64,000 nt of DNA, from assembly GCA_963845565.1 (NCBI GenBank), contig CAWJSJ010000005.1, positions 192,001 to 256,000 on the forward strand. Direction: 5' to 3'. Numbering within the stretch: the first letter of the stretch is position 1; each line of letters starts with the position of its first letter. This document shows positions 3,290 to 18,029 of the stretch, one piece after another. The DNA comes from an uncultured Methylomirabilota bacterium (GTDB lineage Bacteria > Methylomirabilota > Methylomirabilia > Methylomirabilales > 2-02-FULL-66-22). The notes under the pieces are model-generated. The model was given only the letters and a program-made list of their open reading frames with translations, was not told the origin of the DNA and searched no databases. Both the position numbers and the translations under genes were made by a program.

Positions 3290-3489
3290 GGAATGTCCTC
3301 CTGTTTTCGGATGATCGATGCTCACCCCGGGATCGAGCCGTCGTTGGACAAAGCCGCGGCGCGGTCCTGTTCTACCAAGGGAGCGGCGATTGGTCAAGCC
3401 GGCACCCGTGGCCCGATTGCCTCTGGGGACAGTGGACAGGCGGGAGACGGACCTGATACCATCCTCGCGCACGTTGGAGGAGGCGATCA

Positions 3490-3879
3490 GTGGGATTTTG
3501 GGCCACGTGGACGGGGCGAGCGCGGGCGCTGAAACGGGAGACGTACGCCGTCTATCTGGCGTGCCGGGACCCGCGGGTGCCATGGTACGGTCGGGTGCTG
3601 GCAGCCTGCATCGTCGGGTACGCGTTCAGCCCGATCGACCTCATCCCCGATTTTGTCCCCGTCCTCGGCTACCTGGACGACCTGATCCTGATTCCCCTTG
3701 GCATCGCGTTCGTCCTCAGGGCCATCCCGCCCGAGGTGATGGCCGAATGCCGGGAGAAGGCGGCGATCGCCATGGCGGGCGGCAAGCCCAGGAACTGGAT
3801 CGCCGGCGGGATCATCGTGTTCATCTGGATCGTGCTCGCCGTAGGCGCCGCCGTACTTGGTTTCCGAATTCTGCAATAG
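3490..3879 (+). CDS. YkvA/DUF1232 family membrane protein
   Basis: [21 protein letters not shown] signature. Confidence 0.9.
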
Positions 3880-3973
3880 CACTCACCGTCTCGGTCTCTG
3901 TTGGCACGGCCTAATTGTGGATCTCAAGAACATTCGAAGGCATTGGATTGCCACACGCGTCTCAACAGACTAT

Positions 3974-3995
3974 CATATGCAGACACGTGCATGTG
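3974..3995. promoter_or_regulatory. Putative ArsR operator CATATG-N10-CATGTG
   Basis: Palindrome just upstream of arsR; same motif at 4391, 10965 and 11329. Confidence 0.6.
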
Positions 3996-4007
3996 TTGAG
4001 GTCGAGG

Positions 4008-4376
4008 ATGAAGGACATTGCTCGCGTCCTGGATATGTTGGCGGACCCGACACGGCTCCGACTGCTGCGGTTGCTGCGTCAGCAGGAACTGTGCGTCTGC
4101 GAGCTTGTGGATACGCTCCGCATGCCGCAGTACAAGATCTCCCGGCACCTGCGCAGTCTCCGCGCCGTCGGCCTCGTCGAGGCCCGGCGGGACGGCCGGT
4201 GGATGCACTACCGTCTGGGGCGCCGTGGCGTGCAGGCTCGCCTGGTGCAGGATCTGCTCGCAGTGTTGTGCGGCCACCTGGACAAGACACCACTCGGCCA
4301 ACGGGACGACTCCAGTCTGCGGCGTCGGTTGGCCGCGGGAAAGGTCGGGCGGTGTCTGACGCGGAGCCGTCCGTGA
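4008..4376 (+). CDS. arsR: ArsR/SmtB family As(III)-responsive repressor
   Basis: [17 protein letters not shown] metal-binding motif, ISRHLRSLR; lies upstream of acr3. Confidence 0.9.
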
Positions 4377-4390
4377 CTCTTGTGGGCAAA

Positions 4391-4412
4391 CATATGCGCT
4401 CTGCGACATATG
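4391..4412. promoter_or_regulatory. Putative ArsR operator CATATG-N10-CATATG
   Basis: Perfect 6-10-6 palindrome between arsR and acr3. Confidence 0.6.
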
Positions 4413-4453
4413 ACGCTGGGTACGGGACCGCAACGAATCATAGGAGCGAGCGC

Positions 4454-5536
4454 ATGACTGACGGTGTGGTGAAAAAGCTGTCGTTTCTCGATCGGTATCT
4501 CACGGTCTGGATCTTCCTGGCGATGTTCATTGGAGTCGGACAGGGATACTTCTTCCCAACGAGCACGGCGTGGATCTCCGCCTTTCAGGTGGGGACGACC
4601 TCATTCCCCATCGCGATCGGCCTCATCCTGATGATGTATCCGCCGCTCGCCAAGGTGAAGTATGAGGAGATCGGCCGGGTCTTCAAGGACGTCAGGATCC
4701 TTCTCCTTTCCCTGGTGCAGAACTGGGTGATCGGCCCGATCCTGATGTTCATCCTGGCGATCACGTTTCTGCGGGATTACCCCGAGTACATGGTCGGGCT
4801 GATCATGATCGGCCTGGCCCGCTGCATCGCCATGGTCATCGTCTGGAACGAGCTGGCGCGGGGCGACACGGAGTACTGCGCGGCCTTGGTGGCGTTCAAT
4901 TCCATCTTCCAGGTCTTGTTCTTCTCGGTGTTTGCGTATGTGTTCATCACGGTGCTGCCCCGCTGGTTCGGCCTGCAGGGTACGGTGGTGAACATCTCCA
5001 TCGGGCAGATCGCCGAGAGCGTGTTTATTTACCTGGGGATACCGTTCATCGCCGGGGTCATCACGCGCTTCACCCTCATTCCGCTGAAGGGCAAGGAATG
5101 GTATCAGAAGGTATTCATCCCGCGGATTTCCCCCATCACGCTGATCTCGCTGCTGTTCACCATCGTGGTGATGTTCAGCCTGAAGGGGGAGTACATCGTC
5201 CGCTTGCCCCTGGACGTCCTGCGGATCGCGGTGCCGCTCCTGATCTACTTCGTGGTGATGTTCCTGGTGTCGTTCTACCTGAGCTACCGGCTGGGGGCCG
5301 ATTACCCGAAGAGCGCGTCGCTCTCCTTCACGGCGGCCAGCAACAATTTCGAGCTGGCGATCGCCGTGGCCGTGGCGGTCTTCGGCTTGAACTCCGGAGC
5401 GGCCTTCGCCGCGGTGATCGGCCCGCTGGTGGAGGTCCCGGCGCTGATCGGCCTGGTCAACGTGGCGTTCTGGTTCCAGCGGCGGTATTTCGCCGATGCA
5501 CCGGCGGCGAGGCTACAGCGGTGCCCGGGGGAGTGA
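4454..5536 (+). CDS. acr3: ACR3 family arsenite efflux transporter
   Basis: [47 protein letters not shown] before ATG 4454. Confidence 0.95.
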
Positions 5537-5537
5537 C

Positions 5538-5795
5538 ATGGCGGACACGATCATCATATACGGCACCGATACCTGTCCTTACTGCAGCCAGGCGCGAGCG
5601 GCCTATGGGGACAGGGCGGTGTACGTGAACGTTGGCCAACACCCCGAGAAGCTCTCGGAAATGCTGGCTTTGACCGGGGGCAAGAGACATGTGCCAGTGA
5701 TCGTAGAAGGGGGAAAGGTGACGGTTGGCTTCGCAGGAGAGGCCTCTCTGCGCGGTGGCATCCCCCTCTTCGGGGGAACCTGATCCGTCAAATAG
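5538..5795 (+). CDS. Glutaredoxin-like putative selenoprotein (CPYC; C-terminus GGT-U-SVK, UXX-star-like)
   Basis: Grx features (CPYC, VPVI); TGA 5781-5783 is followed by 3 codons and TAG, with a hairpin 11 nt downstream. If UGA is a stop the gene ends at 5783. Confidence 0.75.
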
Positions 5796-5813
5796 GTCTG
5801 CCGTGGGCGGACC
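5795..5813 (+). promoter_or_regulatory. Putative bacterial SECIS hairpin
   Basis: GGTCTGCC-GTG-GGCGGACC, starting 11 nt after TGA 5781. Confidence 0.6.
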
Positions 5814-5840
5814 GCGAACCGACGTCAGAAAGGGAATGAC

Positions 5841-6152
5841 ATGATTGAAATCACAGAAACCGCACGGACGGCAATCGAGGGGGTCCTCGGGCAGCACAAA
5901 GGGCGGCCCGCGGTGAGAATCCTTTTGCAACCCGGCTGAGGCGGGCCCAAACTGGGTATGGCTCTGGACGAGCCCCAAGAGAACGATGTGACCCACACTG
6001 ATCACGGTGTCACCTTTGCGATCGAGAAGGATCTGTTTGAGCAAATCAAGCCGGTCCGCGTCGATTTCGTGGAGTCGGCAGACGGATCAGGATTCCACCT
6101 CACCTCGAGCCTGGCGCCAGGCGACGGCTGCGGGAGCTCCTGCGCGTGCTAG
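5841..6152 (+). CDS. IscA/HesB-like putative selenoprotein
   Basis: MIEITETA...LQPG-U-GGPKLGMALDEP...GCGSSCAC; in-frame TGA 5937-5939 at the first Cys position of HesB/IscA; hairpin GGCTC-TGGAC-GAGCC at 5960-5974. Confidence 0.85.
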
Positions 6153-6235
6153 TGTCCGGAGAATAGCGGTCGGCCAGGTCGACGGCGGGCGCGTGGCCCC
6201 AGGAGAGGAGTCGAGCGGCAGGAGGGCAGGAGCGC

Positions 6236-6658
6236 ATGGAACCCACGATCAAGGTCTTATTTGTGTGCACCGGAAATTCCGCCCGGAGCCAGATGGCCGA
6301 GGGCTTCGCGAGGCACTTCGGTGGCGAGCAGATCGAGGCGCACAGCGCCGGGGTGGAGCCGAGTCGGCTGAATCCCGTTGCCGTGGCGGTCATGCAGGAG
6401 AAGGGGATCGACATCTCGGGCCACCACTCGAAGGCGTTCGACTGGGACCTGGCTCGACAGATGGACGTGGTGGTGACGGTGTGCGGTCATGCCAACGAGT
6501 CCTGCCCGGTCCTGCCGCCGGAGGTGAAACGCCTCCACTGGCCCCTAGAGGACCCGGCTGCCGCCAAGGGCACGGACACGGAGATCATGGCCACGTTCCG
6601 TCTCGTGCGGGATCAAGTCGAAACCCGGGTCGTGGACTTGCTCCGTACGGTGCGCTAG
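6236..6658 (+). CDS. arsC: Thioredoxin-coupled (LMW-PTP fold) arsenate reductase
   Basis: CTGNSARSQMAE P-loop, TVCGHANESCP resolving cysteines, HWPLEDP. Confidence 0.9.
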   Translation: MEPTIKVLFVCTGNSARSQMAEGFARHFGGEQIEAHSAGVEPSRLNPVAVAVMQEKGIDISGHHSKAFDWDLARQMDVVVTVCGHANESCPVLPPEVKRLHWPLEDPAAAKGTDTEIMATFRLVRDQVETRVVDLLRTVR

Positions 6659-6735
6659 CGCGATCAACTCCCGCGACATCCGTGGGCACGCAATCCGGCG
6701 GACACGCGCGTGACGACTCACAACCGGGGGTGACC

Positions 6736-7026
6736 ATGAAGATCAGTGTCAAGGTCGTCGGACTTTGGAAACTGGTCGAAAAGATGGGGAACAAGGGGTG
6801 CGGAGTGGTGGAGTTTCCCGGGGGAACGGCGAACGATCTCTTTCGACACCTCCTGGCTCACCACGGGTTCGTGTGGGCGGACTTTCCGCTCTTGGAGAAA
6901 TGGGAGGAGAATATCAACCTCTCCATCGTGCATAACGATGACATCTTGTTGAAGGCCGACTATGGCCGAACGCCTCTTGCGGACGGCGACAAGCTGTCGC
7001 TTTACGTTCAGACGGGGTGTTGTTAG
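6736..7026 (+). CDS. MoaD/ThiS-like beta-grasp protein with atypical C-terminus TGCC
   Basis: 96 aa: MKISVKVVG..., GGTANDLF, TPLADGDKLSLYVQTGCC; pattern of MoaD/ThiS but without terminal Gly-Gly. Confidence 0.7.
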   Translation: MKISVKVVGLWKLVEKMGNKGCGVVEFPGGTANDLFRHLLAHHGFVWADFPLLEKWEENINLSIVHNDDILLKADYGRTPLADGDKLSLYVQTGCC

Positions 7027-7118
7027 GCGGGAGCGGCGGCGATGATGGCTGCGGTTCCGCCGTGGTGCCCCGCGTTGGCGGCGGGACCGATGAGTGTACC
7101 CAATTCCGAGATGCCTCC

Positions 7119-8370
7119 ATGACCGTTCAACCTGAATCTGCAGCGCACGACGACGAGGAGGGACGCGGGCTGCTCCATCCGGCGGTAGTGTCTCGCTGCG
7201 ATCTGAGCCGTGGTGACCAACCTCACATGGTTGTTGGGGCGAACGGCGCGCAACAGCGTCAACCAGGGGACCGCCTGGCGAAGGTTTACGTCGAGCCGAC
7301 GAATCGCTGCAATCTGGAGTGTCGCACGTGCATCCGGCACGGGTGGGACGAGCCGCTCGGCCAGATGGATGAGGCGACCTTCGCCCGGATCACGGATGGG
7401 CTCCGCGCGTTTTCGCCGCCGCCCACGGTATTCTTTGGCGGCTTCGGCGAACCGTTGGCGCATCCGCGCATCGTGGAGATGGTGGCGAAGGCGAAAGCCC
7501 TCGGCGGGCCGGCGGAGCTCATCACCAACGGGACGCTTCTCACCCAGGATGTGTCGCGGCGTTTGATTTCGGCGGGGCTCGATCTGCTCTGGGTCTCCCT
7601 GGACGGCGCCACACCGGAAAGTTACACGGACGTGCGCCTCGGCGCGGCCTTGCCACAGGTCCTGGCCAATCTCGCGGCGTTCCGGGATGCGCGCACGGCC
7701 GCTCCGGATCGGACCGCACCCCAGATCGGCATCGCTTTTGTGATGATGAAGCGAAACGTCGCCGATCTGCCGGCGGTGCTGCGCCTTGGGGACCGTTTGG
7801 GGGCGACCCGATTCATGGTCAGCAACGTGCTGCCGTACACGAAGGCGATGTGCGAGGAGGCGCTCTACCCTCGAGTGCTCACGCGTCGCCTGTACTCTTC
7901 CTCCGACCCTCCCCTCAACTTGTCCGCTCTGGACGGGCGACCAGATTACCTTCGAGTCTCGGCGGGACGTGATGCGCGGAGGCCTGCGCATCAGCCTGAA
8001 CGGCGGCGACCTGGCGGAGGCCAGGAACCGCTGCCCGTTTGTCGAGCGCGGCGCCATGGCGATCGCCTGGGATGGGAACGTTAGCCCGTGCCTACCCCTC
8101 CTGCACAGCCATGTCAGTTATCTGGGGGGACAAGACCGCATATCGCGACGGTACGTGGTCGGCCAGGTGGCGGAGCGCGATCTCCGCGACCTGTGGACCG
8201 CGCCGGAGTATGTGGCGTTTCGCCGGCGCGTCCAAGGATTCGAGTTCTCACCCTGCACCGGGTGCGGGGGCTGCAATCTCTCGGAGGCGAATCAAGAGGA
8301 CTGCTACGACAACCCGTTTCCCACCTGTGGCGGGTGCCTTTGGGCGCAAGGCATGATCCACTGCCCTTAG
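7119..8370 (+). CDS. Radical SAM/SPASM protein resembling tungsten-oxidoreductase-associated maturases; apparent +1 frameshift near 7935
   Basis: CNLECRTC motif and GGFGEPL in one frame; Cys-rich SPASM tail (CPF..CLP..CTGCGGC..C..CGGCLWAQGMIHCP) in the +1 frame. Confidence 0.85.
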
Positions 8371-8494
8371 CCGGCTGCTCAAAAAGGCCCACCTGCGGCG
8401 TTGGCGCGCTCGGGCGCTCGTTGCGGCGTACCTCCAGTACGCCTCACTCGGCCCATCACTTGCCGCCTTGCATCTGGACTTTTTGAGCAGCCTG
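8368..8494. repeat. MITE/REP-like element with 14-bp terminal inverted repeats
   Basis: GGCTGCTCAAAAAG (8373-8386) ... CTTTTTGAGCAGCC (8479-8492); relatives at 1385 and 13357. Confidence 0.7.
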
Positions 8495-8567
8495 GGCGGG
8501 AGCCTTGCGAACTGAGCGGCCCCAGGCAAGTTCAATCCATTACACCCCAGATTTCAGGCGGTTGTTC

Positions 8568-8607
8568 TTGACAAGGCGGGATGTGTGCAGTAGATTGCAT
8601 GGTACAA
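8568..8607 (+). promoter_or_regulatory. Sigma70 promoter of marR with overlapping palindromic operator
   Basis: TTGACA-N17-TAGATT; TTGCA-N3-TACAA at 8595-8607. Confidence 0.65.
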
Positions 8608-8633
8608 GTAGTATGGAGGAGGCGGGTGAGGCA

Positions 8634-9092
8634 ATGATGACACTGGACGAAGGGGCTGAGCGGCTACACCGTTTGACGAAGGAGCTTCTCCGGCGGTACC
8701 AGTTCCGCGACTGGAACCAGGTCTGCTGCTATGGGATCTCTATCAGCCAGAGCCATATCCTGGACGTCCTGGTGGAGGACGGCGACCTCACCATGCAGGC
8801 GCTCGCGCGGCGGATGTTCAAGTCCGTCAGCACCATGACGCGAGTGGCGGGACAACTGGTCCGGAAGGGCTACATCAAACGCCGACAGGACCCCGAGGAC
8901 CGGCGGGTCGTCCACGTGTCCATCACACCGCAGGGCAAGGCCATCATCGCCGCGATTCAGCGGGACATGATCGAGACACAGAAGGCCGTCCTCCAGACCG
9001 TGCCGGCCGACGAATGGGCAGGGGCTTTCAAGGTGCTCGAGGCCCTGTCCCGAGGCGCGCGACGGTGGCAGGAGACGTGCTGCAAGGTGTGA
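8634..9092 (+). CDS. MarR family regulator with two vicinal Cys pairs
   Basis: wHTH MarR motifs (STMTRV, DPEDRRVVHVSITPQG); VCCYG near the N-terminus and TCCKV at the C-terminus. Confidence 0.9.
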   Translation: MMTLDEGAERLHRLTKELLRRYQFRDWNQVCCYGISISQSHILDVLVEDGDLTMQALARRMFKSVSTMTRVAGQLVRKGYIKRRQDPEDRRVVHVSITPQGKAIIAAIQRDMIETQKAVLQTVPADEWAGAFKVLEALSRGARRWQETCCKV

Positions 9093-9108
9093 TTTGGTTT
9101 GCACATAT

Positions 9109-9125
9109 GGTTGTATACTGCAACC
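9109..9125. promoter_or_regulatory. Putative MarR operator GGTTGTA-N3-TGCAACC
   Basis: Palindrome matching the 8595 site, upstream of the AhpD-like gene. Confidence 0.55.
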
Positions 9126-9150
9126 GTCGTGATACTCAAAGGGAGGCGCC

Positions 9151-9438
9151 ATGCTCAAGCCAAAGCAGGACCAGTTGGCAAACGAATTTTACCAGGCCGC
9201 CTTTGCCGATGGTGAGGTGGACGCGAAGACCAAGATCCTGATCGGGACCGCCGTCTCGATGACGCTGGGGTGCTACCCCTGAATGCGGTATTACCTTGGC
9301 GTGGCCAAGGAGCAAGGAATCTCGGAGGGGGCGATTCGGGAGGCGATGGCCGTCGCGATGGCGGTGAACAGCGGACGTGTCCGCATGCAGGCGCGTGAGG
9401 CGCTCAAGGGCTTGCTGGAGCCGCTGGCTTCAGCGTGA
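9151..9438 (+). CDS. AhpD/carboxymuconolactone decarboxylase family putative selenoprotein (CxxU)
   Basis: GGGAGG RBS; DAKTKILIGTAVSMTLGCYP-U-MRYYLGVAKEQGISEGAIREAMAVAMAV; TGA 9280-9282; hairpin CCTTGGC-GTG-GCCAAGG 11 nt downstream. Confidence 0.85.
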
Positions 9439-9453
9439 TGCGAGGAGAATGAC

Positions 9454-10923
9454 ATGAGTGCGAAAGAGTTCAGCCAGGCGGAGATCAAAGACGCGGTGAA
9501 GTCCCGGTATGCGAAAGCCATCCAGGGCCCTTCTTCCTGCTGTGGCCCATCAGCCACCCCGGCGGGGGCCCCGTCGAGCTCCTGCTGTGGACCGATCACG
9601 ATCGAGCAGAAGGGGGGCATGGTCAAGATTGCCGGCTACGATAAAGCCGACTTGAGCCGGCTGCCGGCCGACGCCGTCCAGAACTCCTTCGGGTGCGGAA
9701 CGCCCCTGGCGTTCGCGGGAGTCCAAGAAGGCCAGACGGTCCTCGACATCGGATCGGGCGCAGGCATTGATTGCTTCATCGCCGCGGAAAAAGTGGGGCC
9801 GACCGGCAAAGTGATCGGCCTGGACATGACGCCCGAGATGATCGAGCGCGCCCGCCAGAACGCCAAGGACGCCGGCCTCACCAACGTGGAGTTCCGCTTT
9901 GGCGAGGCGGAGAAGATGCCGGTCGACGATGCCTCCGTGGACTGGGTGATCTCGAACTGCGTGATCAACCTGAGTCCCGACAAGCCGGCGGTCTTCGGCG
10001 AGATCGGAAGGATCCTGCGCCCCGGCGGCCGGATCTCCATCTCCGACATCGTGGCGCAAGACCTCCCGAAGGCGGTCCGGGAGAGTCGCGACGCCTGGAC
10101 CGGATGCCTGGCCGGGGCGATCAGCGAAGAGGCTTATGTCCAGGGGCTTGAGAAGGCTGGATTACGCGACGTGCGCGTCACGTCGCGCATTGTGTATGAC
10201 GCGAGTCAACTCAAGGGCTTGTTTGGCAGCTCCTGCTGCGGGGCGGGAGAAGGGCAAGACGTGGCGGCCCTGGCGGACGCCGCGGCCGGGAAGATCTGGA
10301 GCGCGCGGTTCGAGGGGGTCAAGGCGCAACCGACGTCAGTGGTCGCCGGGACAACCATCGAGCCGGCCACGAAAGGCGACCTTCCCATGCTCGAAGCACT
10401 TCTGGTGGAGGCCGGTCTCCCCACAGATGTTGCCCCGCATCTGGCCGACTTCCTGGTGGCCCGACATCACCGAAAGGTTGTGGGGTGCGGGGGTATGGAG
10501 ATCCAGGGCACAGACGCGCTGTTTCGCTCGCTGGCGGTCAGTTCCGCCTATCGAGGGGTCGGCATCGGCCGACGGCTTTACGAAGCGCTCGTCGAAAAGG
10601 CTCGAGGAAAGGGCATCCACAGAGCGTACCTGCTGACAACCACGGTTGCTTCCTTGGCAGAGTCGTGGGGATTCCAGCGCATTGCGCGGGACCAGGTGCC
10701 TGAGGCGATCCGCGACACCACGCAGTTCCGTGGCGCATGCTGCGCCTCGGCGGTTTCCATGTGGAAGGAACTGGACAGTCAGCCTAGCGAAGTGCTGCTC
10801 TTGCTCCTGAACGTGACCGGGCGGTCCGGTCCGGACCGAAGAACGCAAGGTATCCCAGGTCCTGCGGGTTCGCCAACGGGACTTCGAACGTGCGGTGAGG
10901 AACTGCTGCAAGGGAATGGGTGA
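9454..10923 (+). CDS. arsM: Arsenite methyltransferase fused to a C-terminal GNAT (ArsN2-like) domain; true end probably near 10810
   Basis: SFGCGTP, LDIGSGAGID, ISNCVINL, WTGCLAGA; GNAT motifs RSLAV..YRGVGIG, YLLTTT, FRGACCASAVSM. Confidence 0.9.
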   Translation: MSAKEFSQAEIKDAVKSRYAKAIQGPSSCCGPSATPAGAPSSSCCGPITIEQKGGMVKIAGYDKADLSRLPADAVQNSFGCGTPLAFAGVQEGQTVLDIGSGAGIDCFIAAEKVGPTGKVIGLDMTPEMIERARQNAKDAGLTNVEFRFGEAEKMPVDDASVDWVISNCVINLSPDKPAVFGEIGRILRPGGRISISDIVAQDLPKAVRESRDAWTGCLAGAISEEAYVQGLEKAGLRDVRVTSRIVYDASQLKGLFGSSCCGAGEGQDVAALADAAAGKIWSARFEGVKAQPTSVVAGTTIEPATKGDLPMLEALLVEAGLPTDVAPHLADFLVARHHRKVVGCGGMEIQGTDALFRSLAVSSAYRGVGIGRRLYEALVEKARGKGIHRAYLLTTTVASLAESWGFQRIARDQVPEAIRDTTQFRGACCASAVSMWKELDSQPSEVLLLLLNVTGRSGPDRRTQGIPGPAGSPTGLRTCGEELLQGNG

Positions 10924-10938
10924 AGACGCAGTTCGCGC

Positions 10939-10986
10939 TTGACTGGGTTCGGAGTGGGGTATACTATATGAGCATATAGTCATAAG
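10939..10986 (+). promoter_or_regulatory. Sigma70 promoter and ArsR-type operator of the second arsR
   Basis: TTGACT-N17-TACTAT; TATATG-N10-CATAAG at 10965-10986. Confidence 0.55.
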
Positions 10987-10997
10987 GGGGAGGTGTT

Positions 10998-11312
10998 GTG
11001 GCAGACGATCGATTGCGGCAACTGAAAGCAGATCTGCTCAAGGCGCTCGGGCAGCCGACCCGACTGAAGATCCTGGAACTGCTCGTCGATGGGGAGCGGT
11101 GTGTCTGCGAGATCTTCCCGGCGATTCAGGGGGAGCAGTCGAATACCTCGAAGCACCTAAGTTTCCTGCGAAATCACGGCATCGTGATTTCGGAACGGCG
11201 GGGGATGCGAGTGTTCTATCGTCTGGCGGATAAACGAATCGCCCGACTACTGGAGGATGTGGAAGCGTGCGTGCGGGGAGGCCTCCAGGCGCAGGCGAGT
11301 CTGGTGGCCTGA
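10998..11312 (+). CDS. arsR: ArsR/SmtB family regulator (second copy)
   Basis: LKALGQPTRLKIL, ERCVCEI, SKHLSFLR. Confidence 0.85.
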   Translation: MADDRLRQLKADLLKALGQPTRLKILELLVDGERCVCEIFPAIQGEQSNTSKHLSFLRNHGIVISERRGMRVFYRLADKRIARLLEDVEACVRGGLQAQASLVA

Positions 11313-11396
11313 TTTTTTTTGAGTTAAGCATATGAGTGCATGCTCATTTATTCCTATCGCCTCGATTCTCCGATGGCGAGGGAAGGGGGAATACTC

Positions 11397-12530
11397 ATGG
11401 CCGGTGTGGAGGCGAAGTGCAATTGCCGGATGGACCTGCCGGAAGACGAACCCGAACGGGTCGCAGCCAAGGGGAATCGCAGCGTGGGGCGACAGGCCGC
11501 GATCCTTGGAGCCGCCGTGGTGGTCTGGTGGGTCATCTACGGGCAACTGGCCCCCTTGGCCGAGTGGGCCACCTATGGACCGCTCGGCCTCGAGCGGGGA
11601 AGCCACCTGGCAGACGCCGTGGAATTCTTCCTCTACGACACACCCAAGGTGCTCATGCTGTTGACTCTGGTGGTCTTCGGCGTGGGCGTGATCCGCTCCT
11701 TCTTCACCGCAGAGCGGACCCGCCGCATTCTGGCTGGGAAGCGCGAATCAGTCGGCAATGTCCTGGCTGCGCTCCTCGGGATCGTGACTCCGTTCTGCTC
11801 CTGTTCTGCCGTGCCGCTCTTCATCGGATTCGTCACGGCGGGCGTGCCGCTGGGCGTGACTTTCTCCTTTCTGATCTCGGCGCCCATGATCAACGAGATC
11901 GCCCTGGTGCTTCTCTACGGTCTCTTCGGGTGGAAGGTGGCAGCCATCTATCTCGGGACCGGCCTCGTCATCGCCATCCTGTCCGGGTGGGTGATCGGCC
12001 GGTTGAAGATGGAGCCGCACGTTGAGGCGTGGGTGTACAAGACAACGGCGGGTGTCAGCGGCGCGGAGGAAGAACTGGATTGGTCTGGCCGCATTCATGC
12101 GGGGCTGGACGCCGTGCGGGACATCGTGGGGAGGGTGTGGGTTTACGTCGTGCTGGGAATCGCCGTGGGGGCGGGGATTCACGGCTACGTCCCGGAGAAC
12201 TTCATGGCATCCATCATGGGGAAGGGGGCCTGGTGGTCGGTCCCGCTGGCGGTGCTGATCGGGATCCCCATGTACTCGAATGCCGCCGGAATCATCCCCG
12301 TGGTCCAGGCGCTATTGGGGAAAGGGGCGGCGCTGGGGACCGTTCTGGCATTCATGATGGCGGTGATCGGGCTGTCCTTACCCGAGACCATCATCTTGCG
12401 AAAGGTCCTGAAGCCCCGTCTTATCGCCACGTTCATCGCGGTGGTTGGAGCGGGGATCCTGCTCGTCGGGTACCTTTTTAACCTGTTGCCACTTCAAGAG
12501 ATCGTGACCACCGGTCGGGCGATCTCGTAA
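11397..12530 (+). CDS. arsP: DUF318/ArsP family permease
   Basis: TPFCSCSAVPLF, GIPMYSNAAG, GLSLPE; multiple TM helices; ars context. Confidence 0.8.
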   Translation: MAGVEAKCNCRMDLPEDEPERVAAKGNRSVGRQAAILGAAVVVWWVIYGQLAPLAEWATYGPLGLERGSHLADAVEFFLYDTPKVLMLLTLVVFGVGVIRSFFTAERTRRILAGKRESVGNVLAALLGIVTPFCSCSAVPLFIGFVTAGVPLGVTFSFLISAPMINEIALVLLYGLFGWKVAAIYLGTGLVIAILSGWVIGRLKMEPHVEAWVYKTTAGVSGAEEELDWSGRIHAGLDAVRDIVGRVWVYVVLGIAVGAGIHGYVPENFMASIMGKGAWWSVPLAVLIGIPMYSNAAGIIPVVQALLGKGAALGTVLAFMMAVIGLSLPETIILRKVLKPRLIATFIAVVGAGILLVGYLFNLLPLQEIVTTGRAIS

Positions 12531-12592
12531 TCCGTCGGGAGCGGGGGACGGAGCCGTCCCGCCTGCCGCACACGACTCAAAAGGAGCGACAC

Positions 12593-12829
12593 ATGAAGAA
12601 GATCGCGGTGTATGGACCTGGTTGCATGAAGTGCAAGAAGGCCGAGGAGAATGTTCGTCAGGTACTGGCGGAAACGGGGATCCAGGCGACGGTGGAGCAT
12701 GTGACGGAGATGCAGGCCATCGTGGCCGCCGGCGTGATGTCCACCCCGGCGGTGGCCATTGACGGCGTGATCAAGCTGTCGGGTCGTGTTCCTACGACCA
12801 CCGAAATCCGGCAATGGATTTCGGCGTAA
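12593..12829 (+). CDS. Small redox-active disulfide (thioredoxin-like, MTH895-type) protein
   Basis: GPGCMKC, GVMSTPAVAIDG, SGRVP. Confidence 0.9.
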   Translation: MKKIAVYGPGCMKCKKAEENVRQVLAETGIQATVEHVTEMQAIVAAGVMSTPAVAIDGVIKLSGRVPTTTEIRQWISA

Positions 12830-12883
12830 CGCAACCGGCGTGCCCGGATTCTCCCGGGCCGGAGTGTGCCAAGTCTCTCTGTA

Positions 12884-12921
12884 ACGCAGAACCGGAGCCC
12901 ATTCGGGCTCCGGTTCTGCGT
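12884..12921. terminator. Perfect 17-bp hairpin between convergent genes
   Basis: ACGCAGAACCGGAGCCC-ATTC-GGGCTCCGGTTCTGCGT. Confidence 0.65.
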
Positions 12922-12953
12922 CGGCTGTCTGTCGTAGCTTCCGTGACTCCAGG

Positions 12954-13181
12954 TTACCCGGCCAGCTTCGCCTGGAACTTTCCCGCCGCCTGGATCGCGG
13001 CCACGATCTGGTCCGGGGAGGGGGCCCCACCCTCGACGGTCACGCGCGCTTCCTTCTTGATCCGATCCGCCGCCGCACCCTTCACGCCTGCAAGCCTTTC
13101 CAAGGCTTGTTTCACTTCTCGCTCGCAGCCGCCTCAGGTCATGCCGGTGACGGAGAATACCAACTCCTTGGTCTCAGCCAT
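12954..13181 (-). CDS. Heavy-metal-associated (CopZ/MerP-like) putative selenoprotein, GMT-U-GGC
   Basis: AGGAGG RBS; MAETKELVFSVTGMT-U-GGCEREVKQALERLAGV...IVAAIQAAGKFQAKLAG; TGA 13134-13136 replaces the first Cys of GMxCxxC; hairpin CAAGCCTT-GGA-AAGGCTTG at 13091-13109. Confidence 0.85.
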
Positions 13182-13269
13182 TGCATCCTCCTTGTGTGAA
13201 GGCCGTGTGCCCGAACCCGACGAGATACTAACGCGGCTGCCCCCGGTGGGGGAAGCGGATTCTTCCCCG

Positions 13270-13307
13270 GAAAGAACAAGAGGGAAGGGGGTGTTCCCCT
13301 TCCCTCT
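13270..13307 (-). terminator. Putative intrinsic terminator after hsp20
   Basis: 12-bp stem AGAGGGAAGGGG/CCCCTTCCCTCT with T-rich tail on the minus strand. Confidence 0.5.
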
Positions 13308-13398
13308 CTGCCAACAAGATCCTGCATGCCAGACAGCCGAATACCCCCTTCTCGACCAGGCCGCTCAAAAAGGTCCATTGGGCCTTTTCACTGGCCTG

Positions 13399-13866
13399 CT
13401 AGGCGGCTTCGACCTTGATCGCCTTTGGCCGGGCCTCTTCCTTCTTCGGGAGCTGGATCTCCAGCACGCCATCCTTGTAGGTGGCCTTCACCCGCTCGGT
13501 GTCCACCGTCGGAGGCAGGGCCACGGACCGCTGGTAGGCGCCATAGCTCCGCTCGATTCTGGTGAATCCTTCCTCGCTGACCTCGGACTCGTTCTTCCGC
13601 TCGCCCTTCACCGTCAGCATGTTGTCTTCGATCGAGATGTTGATATCTTCCTGCTTGACGCCGGGGACGTCCATCTTCAACGAGATCCCGTCCTTGGTCT
13701 CCACGACATCCAGCAGCGGCTTCCACTCGTCGGCATTCGTGTTCATGCCCTCCCGCAGGAAATTCACGAGGGGCTCATCAAAGATCCGGCGGAAACCGGC
13801 CAACCCTTCGAACGGGTTACAGGTGTGGAGCGATGCGAACCGCGGCTGCAATCTGGTCATCAACAT
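13399..13866 (-). CDS. Hsp20/alpha-crystallin small heat shock protein
   Basis: DVPGVKQEDINI, ERSYGAYQRS, ATYKDGVLEIQLPK; GGAGGAG RBS. Confidence 0.95.
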   Translation of the reverse strand: MLMTRLQPRFASLHTCNPFEGLAGFRRIFDEPLVNFLREGMNTNADEWKPLLDVVETKDGISLKMDVPGVKQEDINISIEDNMLTVKGERKNESEVSEEGFTRIERSYGAYQRSVALPPTVDTERVKATYKDGVLEIQLPKKEEARPKAIKVEAA

Positions 13867-13976
13867 TGTCGTCTCCTCCTCTTGGATTAGTCGAGCGATG
13901 CTCGACTTGGTTTCCCTTCCGACCACCACCATTTATGCCCTGTCGCTTCTGTTTCCTCAGTCATTAGTCGCTAATA

Positions 13977-14006
13977 TATATATAACTTGAGCCGTATATT
14001 GTCAAT
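13977..14006 (-). promoter_or_regulatory. hsp20 promoter with HAIR-like inverted repeat
   Basis: TTGACA-N17-TATATA on the minus strand; CTTGAGC-N7-TGTCAAT at 13986-14006. Confidence 0.55.
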
Positions 14007-14311
14007 ATCAAAATATTAAGTGGAAAAGTAGTCATAAAGCTAATCATTTTCAATAATTTATGTAATCAATAGATCCTCCATACTATTCTGGAAAAAGTTT
14101 GAGCGAGGAGTCTTTCTTGTTCGATGAGGGCTGGATGGATCCCCGTCTGGGGGGGGAAGGCCCCGACCGATGGCCCGTGAATCCAAGCCGAGACAGGCAA
14201 GGAATGGGGCGGTATTTCTGGTGTGATTGTGCGGGGAAAGATGAGCGACTATACTAGGCTAGCAGCGAGGGCACGCATGATGCGCACCGTAGGGATTAAG
14301 GAGGGGAGCAG

Positions 14312-14485
14312 TTGGCGGACGTACACCTCGAGATCGGCCTGAAGAAGGCGATCGAGTGGATCACTCACAGACGGCGGGATGAGCCCACGGCGGGTCTGGC
14401 GGTGATGGTGGATGAGGCCTGTCGACGGTTCGACCTGACCCCGATCCAGGCGGAGTTCCTGCTCCGCCATTTCTCCCAGGGCTGA
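14312..14485 (+). CDS. Small hypothetical protein (57 aa)
   Basis: AAGGAGG RBS, TTG start; LKKAIEWI...VDEACRRFDLTPIQAEFL; below ORF-track cutoff. Confidence 0.65.
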   Translation: MADVHLEIGLKKAIEWITHRRRDEPTAGLAVMVDEACRRFDLTPIQAEFLLRHFSQG

Positions 14486-14492
14486 AGGCCGC

Positions 14493-14780
14493 TCACGGAG
14501 CGACGGCACTTCCCTTGCGCTTGATGTCCTCGATCGCCTGACGAACGGCTGGCAACAGGAACACACCTTCCAGATCGAACTGGGTCAAGCCTGTGGCGAG
14601 CAAACGTGCTTTGTCTCGAACGCCGAGCGTCCGCTCGATGATGATCTGCCGCTCCCCACGGAGGACGCATAGCCCGCCCCGTCCGGCCAGCTCTTCCGTG
14701 GCGAGGTTGGCGTAGCGGACAGGAATCTCGAGCTGTTCGGCCAGCGCTTCCAGTTTGGACAACAACTCCCGATCCAGCAT
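14493..14780 (-). CDS. Hypothetical protein
   Basis: 95-aa ORF with protein-like composition (GGLCVLRGE...IIE...FLLPAVRQAIE). Confidence 0.7.
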   Translation of the reverse strand: MLDRELLSKLEALAEQLEIPVRYANLATEELAGRGGLCVLRGERQIIIERTLGVRDKARLLATGLTQFDLEGVFLLPAVRQAIEDIKRKGSAVAP

Positions 14781-14834
14781 GGCGCCGGACCCCTGTTCGA
14801 TCCCGTACGCTCGAGCCCGCTGCGAAACCCGGCG

Positions 14835-14940
14835 GTTAGGAGCCGTTACGAAATAACCTATACATCTCTTTCTATTTCGTTACGGCTCCTTATGCCGTTT
14901 CGGAATGTCTCCGCTCAACGAATTCTTTGACAACGGCTTA
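14835..14940 (-). repeat. 106-bp double-hairpin repeat, copy 1
   Basis: Reverse complement of 29117-29222 with 2 mismatches; begins at the folP TAA. Confidence 0.9.
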
Positions 14941-15777
14941 CCTGGGCCGGAGGGCCTCGACCATGCGAATCACATCCCGCGTGGCCCCGACGTCGTGCGT
15001 GCGAACCATGTGCGCGCCGTTCAAGATCGCCACCGCCGTTGCGGCCAAGGATCCAGCCAGGCGATCGTCCGGTTCCGGTCGGTCCAGGAGCCTTCCGATG
15101 AAGGACTTCCGAGAGAGCGCGATGAGGATCGGCCGGCCGAGCGCTCGCAACTCTCCCAGTCCGCGCACCACCTCGCAATCCCACGCATCCCAGGGAAGCG
15201 CCGCTTTCCGAAAGAAGCCAATGCCCGGGTCCAGGACGATGCGATTGGCCGACAGGCCGGCGTCGTGCGCCAGGGTGAGGCTCTCTCGCAGAAGACTCCG
15301 CACCCGGTTGATCGGCTCCTGCGCCCCCGGCCCGGTTTCCGAGGCCATCAGGATCGCGCCCACCGCCCGTTGGGCTGCCACCGCGGCCATGCCGGGATCG
15401 TGGCGAAATCCGCTCACGTCGTTGATCACCACGGCCCCCGCGTCAAGGGCGGCCAGCGCGACCCGACTGCGCTTGGTGTCAACGGAGATCGGCAAGGCGG
15501 TCGCCGCGCGGAGCGCGCCGATGGCCCGGGTGAGCCGGCGGATCTCTTCCGCCTCAGAGATCTCGGTCTCCAGATAGGGGGCGGTGGACATGGCGCCGAC
15601 ATCGATCATGTCCACGCCCTCGGCGTCCATCTGCTCTGCGCGTTGGCGGACCGCGTCCTCGGTTTCAGCGACGGAGCCCTTGAAAAAGGACTCGGGGCTG
15701 ACGTTGATCGCCCCGAGGAGACGAACCGGGAATCCGTCCCCCACTTCGAGACCGGCCAGGTTTGCGTACACGGCCAT
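14938..15777 (-). CDS. folP: Dihydropteroate synthase
   Basis: INVSPESF, IDVGAMSTAP, SVDT, DPGIGF, SRKSFIG, VRTHDV. Confidence 0.92.
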   Translation of the reverse strand: MAVYANLAGLEVGDGFPVRLLGAINVSPESFFKGSVAETEDAVRQRAEQMDAEGVDMIDVGAMSTAPYLETEISEAEEIRRLTRAIGALRAATALPISVDTKRSRVALAALDAGAVVINDVSGFRHDPGMAAVAAQRAVGAILMASETGPGAQEPINRVRSLLRESLTLAHDAGLSANRIVLDPGIGFFRKAALPWDAWDCEVVRGLGELRALGRPILIALSRKSFIGRLLDRPEPDDRLAGSLAATAVAILNGAHMVRTHDVGATRDVIRMVEALRPR

Positions 15778-15822
15778 GCGGGTTCTCCGATGGGCTCACG
15801 GTGCGACGTCTTGCTCACAAAC

Positions 15823-15857
15823 AAACGGCGTCAGGAATCTTGCTCCTGACGCCGTTT
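15823..15857. terminator. 14-bp stem hairpin downstream of the SPFH gene
   Basis: AAACGGCGTCAGGA-N7-TCCTGACGCCGTTT. Confidence 0.5.
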
Positions 15858-15882
15858 CGGGTCCACACCCTGCGGCGGGCCG

Positions 15883-16680
15883 TCAGGCCGACTTCTTCAA
15901 CCCTGAAAAGGCCTGCAGGAAGTCAATGGGGAGCGGGAAGACGATGGTCGAGTTCTTCTCCGTGCCGATCTCCGTCAGTGTCTGCAGGTAGCGGAGCTGG
16001 ATCGTGACAGGCTCCGAGGCGATGATCTTTGCCGCCTGGGCCAGCTTCTCGGACGCCTGCAGTTCGCCCTCGGCGTGGATGATCTTGGCGCGCTTCTCCC
16101 GCTCGGCCTCGGCCTGGCGGGCCATGGCGCGCTGCATCTCCTGGGGAAGATCGATGAACTTGACCTCCACGGCGCTGACCTTGATGCCCCACGGTTCGGT
16201 GTGCTCGTCGATGATCCGCTGGAGCTTCTGATTGATCTTGTCGCGCTCCGAGAGCAGTTCGTCCAGCTCGGACTGGCCCAGCACGCTGCGCAGCGTGGTC
16301 TGGGCGATCTGGGAGGTGGCAAACAGGTAATCCTCCACGGCGACCACCGCCCGTTCCGGGTCCATCACCCGGAAGTAAATGACCGCATTCACCTTCAGGG
16401 AGACGTTGTCGCGGGTGATCGTATCCTGGGACGGCACGTCCATGGCCACGGTCCGCAGGCTGACCTTGACCATCTTGTCGATGAGTGGCAGCAGTAAGAG
16501 GAGCCCCGGGCCGTTTCCCTGTCCCCCCGGATTCAGCAACGCCTTGGATAGGCGGCCCAGGCGGAACACGACCGCGCGTTCGTACTCCCGCAGGACCTTC
16601 AACGAGCTGGACAGGACGTAGATGGCCAGAATGATGAGAAAGACCATCGGGACGAAGGTGAACGGCAGGATGTTGTTCAT
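15883..16680 (-). CDS. SPFH/stomatin-like (slipin) protein
   Basis: [43 protein letters not shown]. Confidence 0.92.
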
Positions 16681-18029
16681 TCTGACCTCCCCGGCGTGAC
16701 GGGGCCAGGGGCCGCCATCACGCGCTGGACCGGAACGACGCGCAGGGTGAGTCCCTCGATCTTGGCCACTCGCACCGAATCGCCGGGTTCGACCGGCGAT
16801 TCGGCCTCGGCGTTCCACAGTTCCCCGCGCACAAAGATCTGGCCCCGCGGGGCCAGTCGGCTGCGGACGACCCCTACCTCGCCGACCAGTCCCTCGCGGC
16901 CCGTGGTCGTCCGAGACCACAGGGCGCGCGCCGCCGTGCCGACGATGAGCGTGAAAAAGCCGGCCATCACCAGCGCGGTGACGATGATGGTGGTGAGCGG
17001 GATCCGCATGTCGGGTATCGGGCTGTCGATGAGCATGACGGAGCCGAGGATCATCGCCGCAACGCCTCCCAGCGTCAGGATGCCGTGAGAGACGATCTTG
17101 ATCTCGGCGATGAACATCACGACGGCCAGCAAGATGAGCAGGACACCGGCATAGTTGATCGGCAACTGCTGGAACGCGTACAGGGCCAGGATCAGGCTGA
17201 TCCCGCCGAGGACGCCCGGCAGGACCGCGCCGGGCGTGCTGAACTCGAAGTACAGGCCGGCCAAGCCGAGCAGCAGGAGGAAGTAGGCGATCGTCGGGTC
17301 GGCGATGATCTTCAGGATCTTCTCGCGGAGGTTCATTTCCCCGCGGGTGACGGTGGCGTCCTTCGTTTCGATCTTGACTTTGCCGGCCGCTGTGGTGACC
17401 ACGCGGCCGTCGATCGTCTGGAGGAGGTCCTCCAGCTTCGGACTGACCACATCGATGAGCTTCGCCTTCAGGGCCTCGGTCTCGGTCTTGGCGGTGGCCT
17501 TCCGGACCCACTCCTCGGCCAGATCGATCGGCCGACCGCGCTTCTCGGCGATGGTGCGCATGTACGCCGCCGCGTCGTTGGTGACCTTCTTTTCCATGGT
17601 CTTGTCCATCTGACCGCCCATCGCCACGGGGGCGGCGGCGCCGATGTTGGTTCCCGGCGCCATGGCGGCGACGTGCGCGGCCACGGTGATGAAGGCCCCG
17701 GCCGAGGCGGCGCGGGCGCCGCTGGGGGCGACGTAGACCACGATGGGACGCTCGGCGGCCAGCATCTCCTTGATGATGGCTCGCATGGAGGTGTCCAGGC
17801 CGCCGGGCGTGTCCAGCTCGATGACGAGCGCGGCGACCTTGTCCTTCTCGGCCTGCTTGATGGCGGCCACGATATATTCCGCCGCGCTGGACGAGATGAC
17901 GCCCTCCACCCGGATGACGTTGACCTGAGGGGAGGCGGCGAAGGCCGGCGAAATACCACAACACAGGGCGACGAGGGTCAGGACGACCCCGGCGCGGCGA
18001 ACGCGGGCTGCGAAGTCGAGAGATCGCAT
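16677..18029 (-). CDS. nfeD: NfeD family membrane-bound serine protease
   Basis: [23 protein letters not shown] region; C-terminal OB domain (GELWNA); paired with SPFH gene. Confidence 0.9.

Follow-up and report, generated by a model that had tools for sequence, protein, structure and literature searches.

Introduction

The four selenoprotein families that concern us here have all been catalogued, either in NCBIfam or in Table 1 of a 2026 review (PMC13188914), and the same review already links UXX-star proteins, among others, to metal and metalloid resistance. UXX-star family 1 (NF041114) appears in that table as "distant Grx-like protein 1", with an N-terminal UxxT motif and a total of two selenocysteine (Sec, U) residues, and the table also reports the UxxC motif in cation-transporting ATPases. 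The other three are the HesB-like/IscA_HesB_Se proteins (TIGR01911, NF038090), the ArsM/AhpD fusion selenoprotein (NF041537) and the HMA selenoproteins (NF041115). In this work we compare these families with an arsenic-resistance island in a 64,000-nucleotide (nt) stretch of DNA from an uncultured Methylomirabilota bacterium (assembly GCA_963845565.1, contig CAWJSJ010000005.1, positions 192,001 to 256,000; G000:C5:192001-256000 in our numbering, hereafter the window), whose genome comprises 5.36 Mb in six contigs at 66% GC. Judging from sequence comparison, it is likely that this is a mosaic island of a Sec-decoding bacterium in which UGA is decoded as Sec within four small genes, namely a glutaredoxin-like gene (grx, product GrxU), a HesB/IscA-like gene (hesB, HesBU), an AhpD-like gene (ahpD, AhpDU) and a gene for an HMA protein (hma, HmaU).

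Four in-frame TGA codons and their comparative context

In-frame TGA codons are present at 5781-5783 (grx), 5937-5939 (hesB) and 9280-9282 (ahpD) on the plus strand and at 13136-13134 (hma) on the minus strand, exactly where a first-pass annotation of this DNA, made from the letters and a list of open reading frames, had placed them. That annotation had also noticed that the list truncates or misses all four genes; under translation table 11 we find them truncated or split, where grx is called as 5496-5783 and ends four codons too soon, hesB is reduced to just 5958-6152, ahpD is divided into 9151-9282 and 9283-9438, and hma is called as 12954-13115. Decoding the TGAs as Sec gives the following predicted features, including a hairpin of the selenocysteine insertion sequence (SECIS) type.

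5538..5795, plus strand: glutaredoxin-like selenoprotein (GrxU); NF041114 at 92 bits, cut-off 72; stop TAG at 5793-5795
5795..5813, plus strand: SECIS-type hairpin of grx, from folding and covariation
5841..6152, plus strand: HesB/IscA-like selenoprotein (HesBU); NF038090 at 94.2 bits, cut-off 85
9151..9438, plus strand: AhpD/CMD-like selenoprotein (AhpDU); PF02627 at 52.6 bits
12954..13181, minus strand: HMA (CopZ-like) selenoprotein (HmaU); PF00403 at 49 bits

The comparative data, together with the Sec machinery of the source genome, make it very probable that all four codons specify Sec, as was first proposed. Both selA (578 bits) and selD (342.6 bits) are present, the latter reading CAG-U-ASK with an in-frame UGA of its own; the tRNA-Sec gene (selC) scores 76 bits in Rfam and is given the anticodon tca by ARAGORN, and selB lies approximately 2 kb upstream of it. 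The machinery on which the proposal depends is whole for selA, selC and selD and falters at selB, which is present but carries three 1-nt insertions in the assembly (weighed in the last section).

Folding places a hairpin with G in its loop downstream of the TGA at all four sites, in agreement with the first-pass annotation. The grx hairpin follows an 11-nt spacer and has an 8-bp stem and a GUG loop, and that of ahpD (9294-9310, CCUUGGC-GUG-GCCAAGG) likewise has an 11-nt spacer and a GUG loop, on a 7-bp stem. The spacers are longer for hesB (20 nt; 5960-5974, GGCUC-UGGAC-GAGCC, with a 5-bp stem and UGGAC loop) and for hma (24 nt; 13109-13091, CAAGCCU-UGGAA-AGGCUUG, with a 7-bp stem and UGGAA loop), the hma hairpin being an alternative to the minimum-energy fold.

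The grx codon, which had been singled out as the one TGA near a C-terminus, corresponds to the C-terminal Sec of the catalogued UXX-star type and offers an unusually clean comparative case for a Sec in that position, with a codon that is always TGA followed by true stops that vary. GrxU combines a CPYC site with a Gly-rich tail and the C-terminus FGGT-U-SVK-TAG. A protein search returned 238 homologues, and among the 120 matches listed nearly all are 81-82 aa long and end at the Sec codon; NCBI calls two homologues of 72-79% identity UXX-star family 1. Among GTDB species genomes we located 79 grx loci, mostly in Syntrophales, Smithellaceae and Syntrophorhabdaceae and including the isolate Syntrophorhabdus aromaticivorans UI; the S. 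aromaticivorans orthologue (L067) scores 81.4 bits to NF041114.

Altogether 82 grx copies were examined, window copy included. A PxFGGx motif occurs in 76 of them and the codon that follows is TGA in 76/76, with no Cys form at the Sec position among these copies; in the remaining 6/82 this position is also a stop, of unread codon. The stop that ends the tail is a mix of TAA, TAG and TGA across copies, and the second residue after U is Val in 71/76, with all four Val codons in use. An invariant TGA, varied true stops and synonymous Val codons therefore point to a translated codon and not a terminator. The length of the tail itself varies, with two residues after U in 25 of the 76 copies, three in 10 and 7-15 in the rest. 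Across 74 distinct aligned sequences, 83.6% of the cells of the hairpin are paired, vs. 43-55% when the 3' arm is slid; compensatory changes occur at seven of the eight pairs, the loop always begins with G, and the covariation score of 0.428 compares with 0.237 in shuffles (0/500 reach it). The codon of the first active-site Cys is itself TGA in 44 copies (U-P-F-C), TGT or TGC in 25 (TGT in the window) and unreadable in 7, so that 44 of 69 readable orthologues carry a second in-frame TGA at the active site. With this in mind, we hold it very likely that TGA 5781 is a genuine Sec codon.

Relative to UXX-star family 1, GrxU is alike in its glutaredoxin fold, its score above the cut-off, its near-C-terminal Sec followed by x-Val and its hairpin about 11 nt downstream. 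It is unlike the family in having CPYC (UPFC in the 44 orthologues) instead of UxxT, a linker longer by 13 residues and the tail U-SVK, and its subgroup differs in its ars operon setting, found in 75/79 loci. The source genome also encodes a canonical paralogue of the family (G000:C3:46105-46317, minus strand) with two TGAs (GKDT-U-PHT ... GAG-U-SV-stop); its hairpin resembles that of the island grx, and it has a counterpart in 20/20 genus mates. An AlphaFold2 model of GrxU has a predicted local distance difference test (pLDDT) score of 75-84 in the core and below 50 in the tail (residues 67-85), and for this reason we draw no inference on docking of the tail.

For hesB, ahpD and hma the first-pass annotation had placed the TGA at the Cys position of the family, and Cys/Sec pairs are indeed seen for all three. 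HesBU reads QPG-U-GGP with Sec33 at the position of the first ligand Cys, and ends in GCGSSCAC. Its score above the NF038090 cut-off and its Sec at the first ligand (QxG-U-GGP) place it in the IscA_HesB_Se family; the match to TIGR00049, at 43.6 bits, is below the cut-off of 58.8. The 15 hesB relatives that adjoin grx genes have TGA at the aligned codon in 14 cases and TGC in one (L039). The hairpin is conserved as GGCUC-UGGAY-GAGCC, in which one compensatory pair (A-U in L042 and L071) and G-U variants were seen by eye. What sets the ars-linked proteins apart from the HesB-like/IscA_HesB_Se selenoproteins, with which they share the Sec for the first ligand Cys (U-G-G-P), are their Cys-Cys or CxxxCxC tails and the fact that hesBU travels with grxU beside acr3. 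On the alignment with these relatives, TGA 5937 is almost certainly a Sec codon.

AhpDU carries the motif C-YP-U. A search of 251 genomes of the same phylum gave 12 ahpD orthologues (58-95% identity), all from the same genus and all 12 inside a marR-ahpD-arsM::arsN2 unit, and the Sec codon is TGA in 11 of the 12. More distant AhpD homologues have CxxC, CxxU or UxxU at this site. The hairpin is conserved, and inspection by eye shows one or two changes in it that are compensatory or of the wobble type; it contains a Leu codon CUU, presumed to be rare at 66% GC, that is kept in 13/13 sequences. Among NCBIfam models AhpDU matches NF041537 best, over its AhpD domain (69.8 bits, profile positions 269-343 of 345), and the two have in common an AhpD core with CxxU (here C-Y-P-U) and ArsM as the partner enzyme. 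The differences are that ahpD is a separate gene upstream of arsM (the two products score 69.8 and 179.9 bits, respectively), that ArsM is fused to ArsN2 and a MarR gene leads the unit, and that ArsM is a Cys form reading F-G-C-G-T-P, without an in-frame TGA, where NF041537 has Sec (UxxG). The orthologues give high confidence that TGA 9280 encodes Sec.

HmaU reads GMT-U-GGC, such that Sec replaces the first ligand of the GMTxxxC site; its 49 bits to PF00403 exceed the gathering threshold of 24.8. Twelve hma orthologues have TGA (GMT-U-GGC, 66-89% identity) and one has TGC (G017, L147), and more distant HMA relatives show UxxU, CxxU and CxxC. The hairpin has 90.5% of its cells paired, vs. 24-54% when slid, with two covarying pairs. 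Six or seven of its 7 pairs are kept in 20 of 21 Sec forms (which include L154 from genome G217, flagged as unpublished; the result is independent of it, and no other result draws on G217 or G043), and 2-4 pairs in seven of eight Cys-only forms; the nearest Cys orthologue keeps 6 pairs. HmaU shares with the HMA selenoproteins (NF041115) and the CopZ/MerP chaperones the HMA fold and the GMTxxxC site, with Sec at the first ligand, and its hairpin is common to UxxU and CxxU relatives. It differs in being a stand-alone, single-Sec UxxC protein below the NF041115 cut-off, without a set place in an ars or mer operon. From these comparisons TGA 13136, too, is in all likelihood a genuine Sec codon.

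Several observations weigh against this reading of the four codons or against placement of the proteins in the listed families. Single-sequence folding energies of the hairpins are no better than those of shuffles (z of −1.30, +0.59, −0.30 and −1.47); the case for hairpins beyond chance rests on the comparative data. The alignment of GrxU to NF041114 covers residues 5-68 of 85 and does not reach the U, which the longer linker has moved beyond the profile; the tail after U has three residues where the family has two, and Cys (TGT, C-P-Y-C) takes the place of the N-terminal U of the family. HmaU scores 54.1 bits against the NF041115 cut-off of 95 and reads U-G-G-C instead of UxxU. AhpDU falls far below the NF041537 cut-off (69.8 vs. 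510 bits), no longer, fused AhpD was found in the homologue search, a weak negative given that gene callers cut selenoproteins, and NF041537 is above its cut-off in none of five Desulfobacterota-type genomes. Finally, one ahpD orthologue (G003, L114:332-334) has TAA at the Sec codon with the remaining gene conserved, which is either an error or evidence that Sec is not universal at this codon.

Contigs from other public runs were compared with the island. Over 5540-6213, which includes both TGAs of this part, the island is matched without a difference by a 674-nt contig from another study, and a second contig, with 2 differences over 5414-5826, joins acr3 to grx. At 9280 only one such contig is listed, with five unlisted differences, and none is listed over 13134-13136; the TGAs at 9280 and 13136 therefore rest on relatives. 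An RNA run (X15) was considered as evidence of expression and set aside, as its contigs are only 90-97% like parts of the island and so represent sequences of relatives, possibly from DNA carry-over.

Possible functions of the four selenoproteins

In the proposed scheme, the hairpin past each UGA, at a distance of 11 nt in grx and ahpD, 20 nt in hesB and 24 nt in hma, would recruit SelB with Sec-tRNA(Sec). GrxU, with its CPYC center and flexible, probably disordered Gly-rich Sec tail, would then provide Acr3 and ArsC with a thiol/selenol partner that either binds As(III) by S2Se ligands or recycles ArsC. In HesBU, Sec33 and the C-terminal Cys cluster could together offer three soft ligands, either to As(III) or, as in its family, to an Fe-S cluster, the latter perhaps serving the radical SAM enzyme of the operon. 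AhpDU (CxxU) may be a dedicated reductant that restores ArsM from its disulfide, which would fit the fused ArsM/AhpD selenoprotein of NCBIfam, and the split AhpD-ArsM arrangement points to AhpD as the ArsM reductant. HmaU (UxxC) would be a general soft-metal chaperone. Taken one by one, these assignments range from rather doubtful to about an even chance.

In the ArsD-ArsA relay and in the C-terminal Cys-Cys arm of MerA, a flexible tail or a small protein with soft ligands passes a metal or metalloid to a pump or an enzyme, and we know of no chaperone for Acr3. A more speculative possibility, which we judge improbable, is that GrxU and HesBU together form a selenol-based As(III) relay that passes S2Se or S3Se complexes to Acr3 and travels as a small cassette inserting into existing ars operons, here between acr3 and arsC. 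Unlike the ArsD-ArsA pair and the MerA arm, to which it has no sequence relation, such a relay would use a selenium ligand and have Acr3 as its partner. If true, a pump without a known chaperone would be served by a system of selenium-dependent metalloid chaperones, and the arsenic-selenium interplay in microbes would have a molecular basis.

It is also conceivable, although we would not favor it, that GrxU and HesBU handle no arsenic directly and act as a pair of Fe-S cluster carriers, by which Fe-S proteins such as the radical SAM/SPASM enzyme of the operon are protected or matured under arsenite stress. By family HesBU is an A-type carrier (above the NF038090 cut-off, though below that of TIGR00049), Grx-type proteins hand Fe-S clusters to IscA-type carriers in other systems, and in 14/79 loci there is a radical SAM/SPASM gene no more than 5 kb from grx. 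Yet the GrxU site is the dithiol CPYC and not the CGFS of cluster-transfer glutaredoxins, and the C-termini Cys-Cys-COOH and U-x-V resemble soft-metal ligand tails. The gene neighborhoods also speak against a carrier pair, with grx found without hesB in 63/79 loci and without radical SAM in 65/79, yet with acr3 within 5 kb in 57/79.

Architecture of the island and its grx-hesB insert

Profile searches identify the neighboring genes as the first-pass annotation had named them (acr3, arsC, arsM, an ArsP-like permease, two arsR genes and a Cys-rich marR), and the components of an ars operon are all found, with ArsR, an arsenite pump and ArsC plus the optional ArsM. The remaining features are as follows.

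4008..4376, plus strand: arsR1, ArsR/SmtB regulator; NF033788 at 95 bits, cut-off 55; PF01022
4454..5536, plus strand: Acr3 arsenite efflux permease; TIGR00832 at 463.9 bits, cut-off 282.8
6236..6658, plus strand: ArsC, thioredoxin-coupled LMW-PTP type; TIGR02691 at 168.6 bits, 5.7 bits below the equivalog cut-off of 174.3; PF01451
6736..7026, plus strand: 96-aa protein with C-terminus -GCC, in a variable slot between arsC and the radical SAM gene
7119..8370, plus strand: radical SAM/SPASM protein, TIGR04317/TIGR04311-like by profile matches; frame broken near 7937
8368..8500, no strand: palindromic intergenic repeat of about 130 bp; approximately 200 BLAST matches in the genome and a depth spike
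8613..9092, plus strand: MarR regulator with two vicinal Cys pairs; PF01047
9454..10923, plus strand: ArsM::ArsN2 fusion; NF008823 at 303 bits, cut-off 263; NF040501 at 130.9 bits, cut-off 125
10998..11312, plus strand: arsR2, second ArsR/SmtB regulator; NF033788 at 91.4 bits
11340..12530, plus strand (start codon uncertain): ArsP_1-family permease, SaoE-like below cut-off; PF03773 at 256.7; NF040736 at 137.4 bits, cut-off 325
12593..12829, plus strand: MTH895/ArsE-family thioredoxin-like protein, CMKC; TIGR00412 at 96.1 bits, cut-off 62

On this gene order the island reads as a mosaic of three regulator-led units. Unit 1 is arsR-acr3-[grxU-hesBU]-arsC-small protein-radical SAM/SPASM, unit 2 is marR-ahpDU-arsM::arsN2, divided from unit 1 by the palindromic repeat, and unit 3 is arsR-ArsP_1 permease-ArsE-like thioredoxin. 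Promoter-like hexamers, which are consensus matches only, precede arsR1 (3948-3976), marR (8568-8596) and arsR2 (10939-10967).

The mosaic is most apparent at grx-hesB. The closest relative, G016, is syntenic with the window over 3476-17950 (acr3 at 91.6% nt identity), and its arsC starts about 100 bp after acr3, which means that window 5488-6245, i.e., grx plus hesB, is missing there. Neither island gene has an orthologue in any of the 20 genus mates, where the best matches to grx (43-56% identity) are the canonical paralogues and the best to hesB are of 28-34% identity without stops. Outside the genus, an ars gene lies within 3 kb of grx in 75/79 loci, acr3 within 3 kb in 55, an ArsE-like thioredoxin within 3 kb in 46 and hesB within 3 kb in 16. 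The grx-hesB pair is thus a small cassette of the kind usual in Desulfobacterota-type ars operons, and within the genus only the source genome carries it. A recent transfer from low-GC Syntrophales was considered and rejected, as the GC content of the cassette (0.62-0.63) is within the 0.57-0.67 of the island; the best protein matches (85-88%) are from metagenome contigs.

The hma gene, in turn, probably forms a unit of its own outside the ars operons. It is read from the opposite strand, convergently with unit 3, and a terminator-like hairpin located after hsp20 separates it from that gene. Of 13 loci in relatives, 4 have hma after hsp20 and 3 have it facing an ArsP_1 permease, namely G016 and two loci with a different paralogue, and the neighbors are otherwise unrelated; these three and the window are the only places where hma adjoins ars-type genes, which counts against tying it to arsenic.

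The first-pass annotation had gone further and had read all four selenoproteins, HMA included, as one co-regulated selenium-dependent arsenic redox/trafficking system. It is true that the four genes lie within 9.2 kb, that the two ArsR and the Cys-rich MarR could all respond to arsenic, and that hma adjoins the ArsP_1 permease here and in those three relatives. A single system nevertheless seems unlikely to us, as there are three separate regulators with their own promoter-like sites, grx-hesB is an insert missing from genus mates in which the other genes are kept, and hma stands on the other strand behind its hairpin with neighbors that vary. On the whole the earlier proposal is partly supported, in its Sec codons and Sec machinery but not in its single system; the marR-ahpD-arsM unit is kept in the genus, grx is in ars loci elsewhere, and hma is only loosely linked.

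The earlier suggestion that this combination of genes is undescribed should be toned down. All four families are already catalogued; a full-text literature search found no paper joining HesB, acr3 and selenocysteine, within a coverage that excludes the likeliest source, Haft & Tolstoy 2025. Within that coverage, what appears to be new is an ars-specific Grx-U subgroup with an invariant TGA and its operon context. As far as we have checked, the grx-hesB cassette inserted between acr3 and arsC and the split AhpD/ArsM arrangement under a Cys-rich MarR are new as well. As things stand, the locus is a well-supported instance and variant of things that databases already list. Its value is that it ties subgroups of UXX-star family 1, which is functionally blank, and of the HesB-like selenoproteins to Acr3-type arsenic operons. 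Since standard gene calling hides all four genes, inventories of arsenic resistance in anaerobe and wetland genomes would miss this selenium-dependent layer.

Several smaller observations concern the neighboring genes. The MarR protein carries its Cys pairs in VCCYG and ETCCKV and heads the ahpD-arsM unit in 12 genus mates; with these Cys residues it may be an arsenical sensor. ArsM is joined to the arsinothricin-type N-acetyltransferase ArsN2 in one open reading frame, a fusion that is kept in 12 genus mates. The 96-aa protein, found in 1/20 genus mates, has no match in Pfam or NCBIfam, and an Atlas feature match of 0.91 to ThiS clusters is a lead, and only that, to a ThiS/MoaD-like protein. 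In G016 the slot after arsC holds a DF-family selenoprotein with a TGA of its own (NF049942, 100.8 bits; L198:11083-11397, minus strand). Compared with G016 and with the contig of a relative, the radical SAM/SPASM gene contains an additional G near 7937 that divides it between two frames, through either an error of assembly or a recent frameshift. In many Desulfobacterota-type loci (L025-L103, e.g., L029, L031 and L037) the same radical SAM/SPASM gene directly follows acr3, which marks it as a conserved enzyme linked to ars genes.

State of selB and readings of the TGAs as stops

The selB gene matches its family in three frames, and a DNA alignment with five genus mates locates three 1-nt insertions in the GTPase domain (G000:C4:5480-6000, outside the window). 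This weighs against Sec decoding as a whole, since no Sec would be inserted if the insertions were real. We consider them probably errors of the long-read consensus because the genome differs from G016 by dozens of 1-nt indels within coding DNA, and G016 has broken frames elsewhere, in ArsM and MarR, where the versions of the source genome are whole.

If the selB frameshift were nevertheless true, Sec decoding would have been lost, with the four TGAs acting as stops and the genes being truncated relics of an ancestral selenoproteome. The stops in the shifted frame of selB and the likewise frameshifted radical SAM gene would agree with such a loss. We regard it as very unlikely, given that the TGA, the hairpin and the downstream frame are all intact in selD, in the second UXX-star paralogue and in the four island genes, that selB is whole in 17/20 genus mates, and that the pattern of indels relative to G016 fits long-read consensus errors.

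Least probable is that TGA 5781 is a plain stop and the grx hairpin a terminator, attenuator or RNA-stability element: only three codons follow this TGA, the U is outside the NF041114-aligned part and gene callers end almost all listed homologues at 81 aa, but a plain stop would hardly be TGA in 76/76 copies ahead of a next stop that uses all three stop codons, nor be followed by a Val conserved through synonymous variation and by a hairpin that has the 11-nt spacing of a SECIS, always has G at the start of its loop and lacks a T-run; in addition, 44 orthologues have another TGA, in frame and unambiguous, at the active site.

The palindromic repeat of about 130 bp at 8368-8500, whose ends read GGCTGCTCAAAAAG ... 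CTTTTTGAGCAGCC, has another copy after selD.

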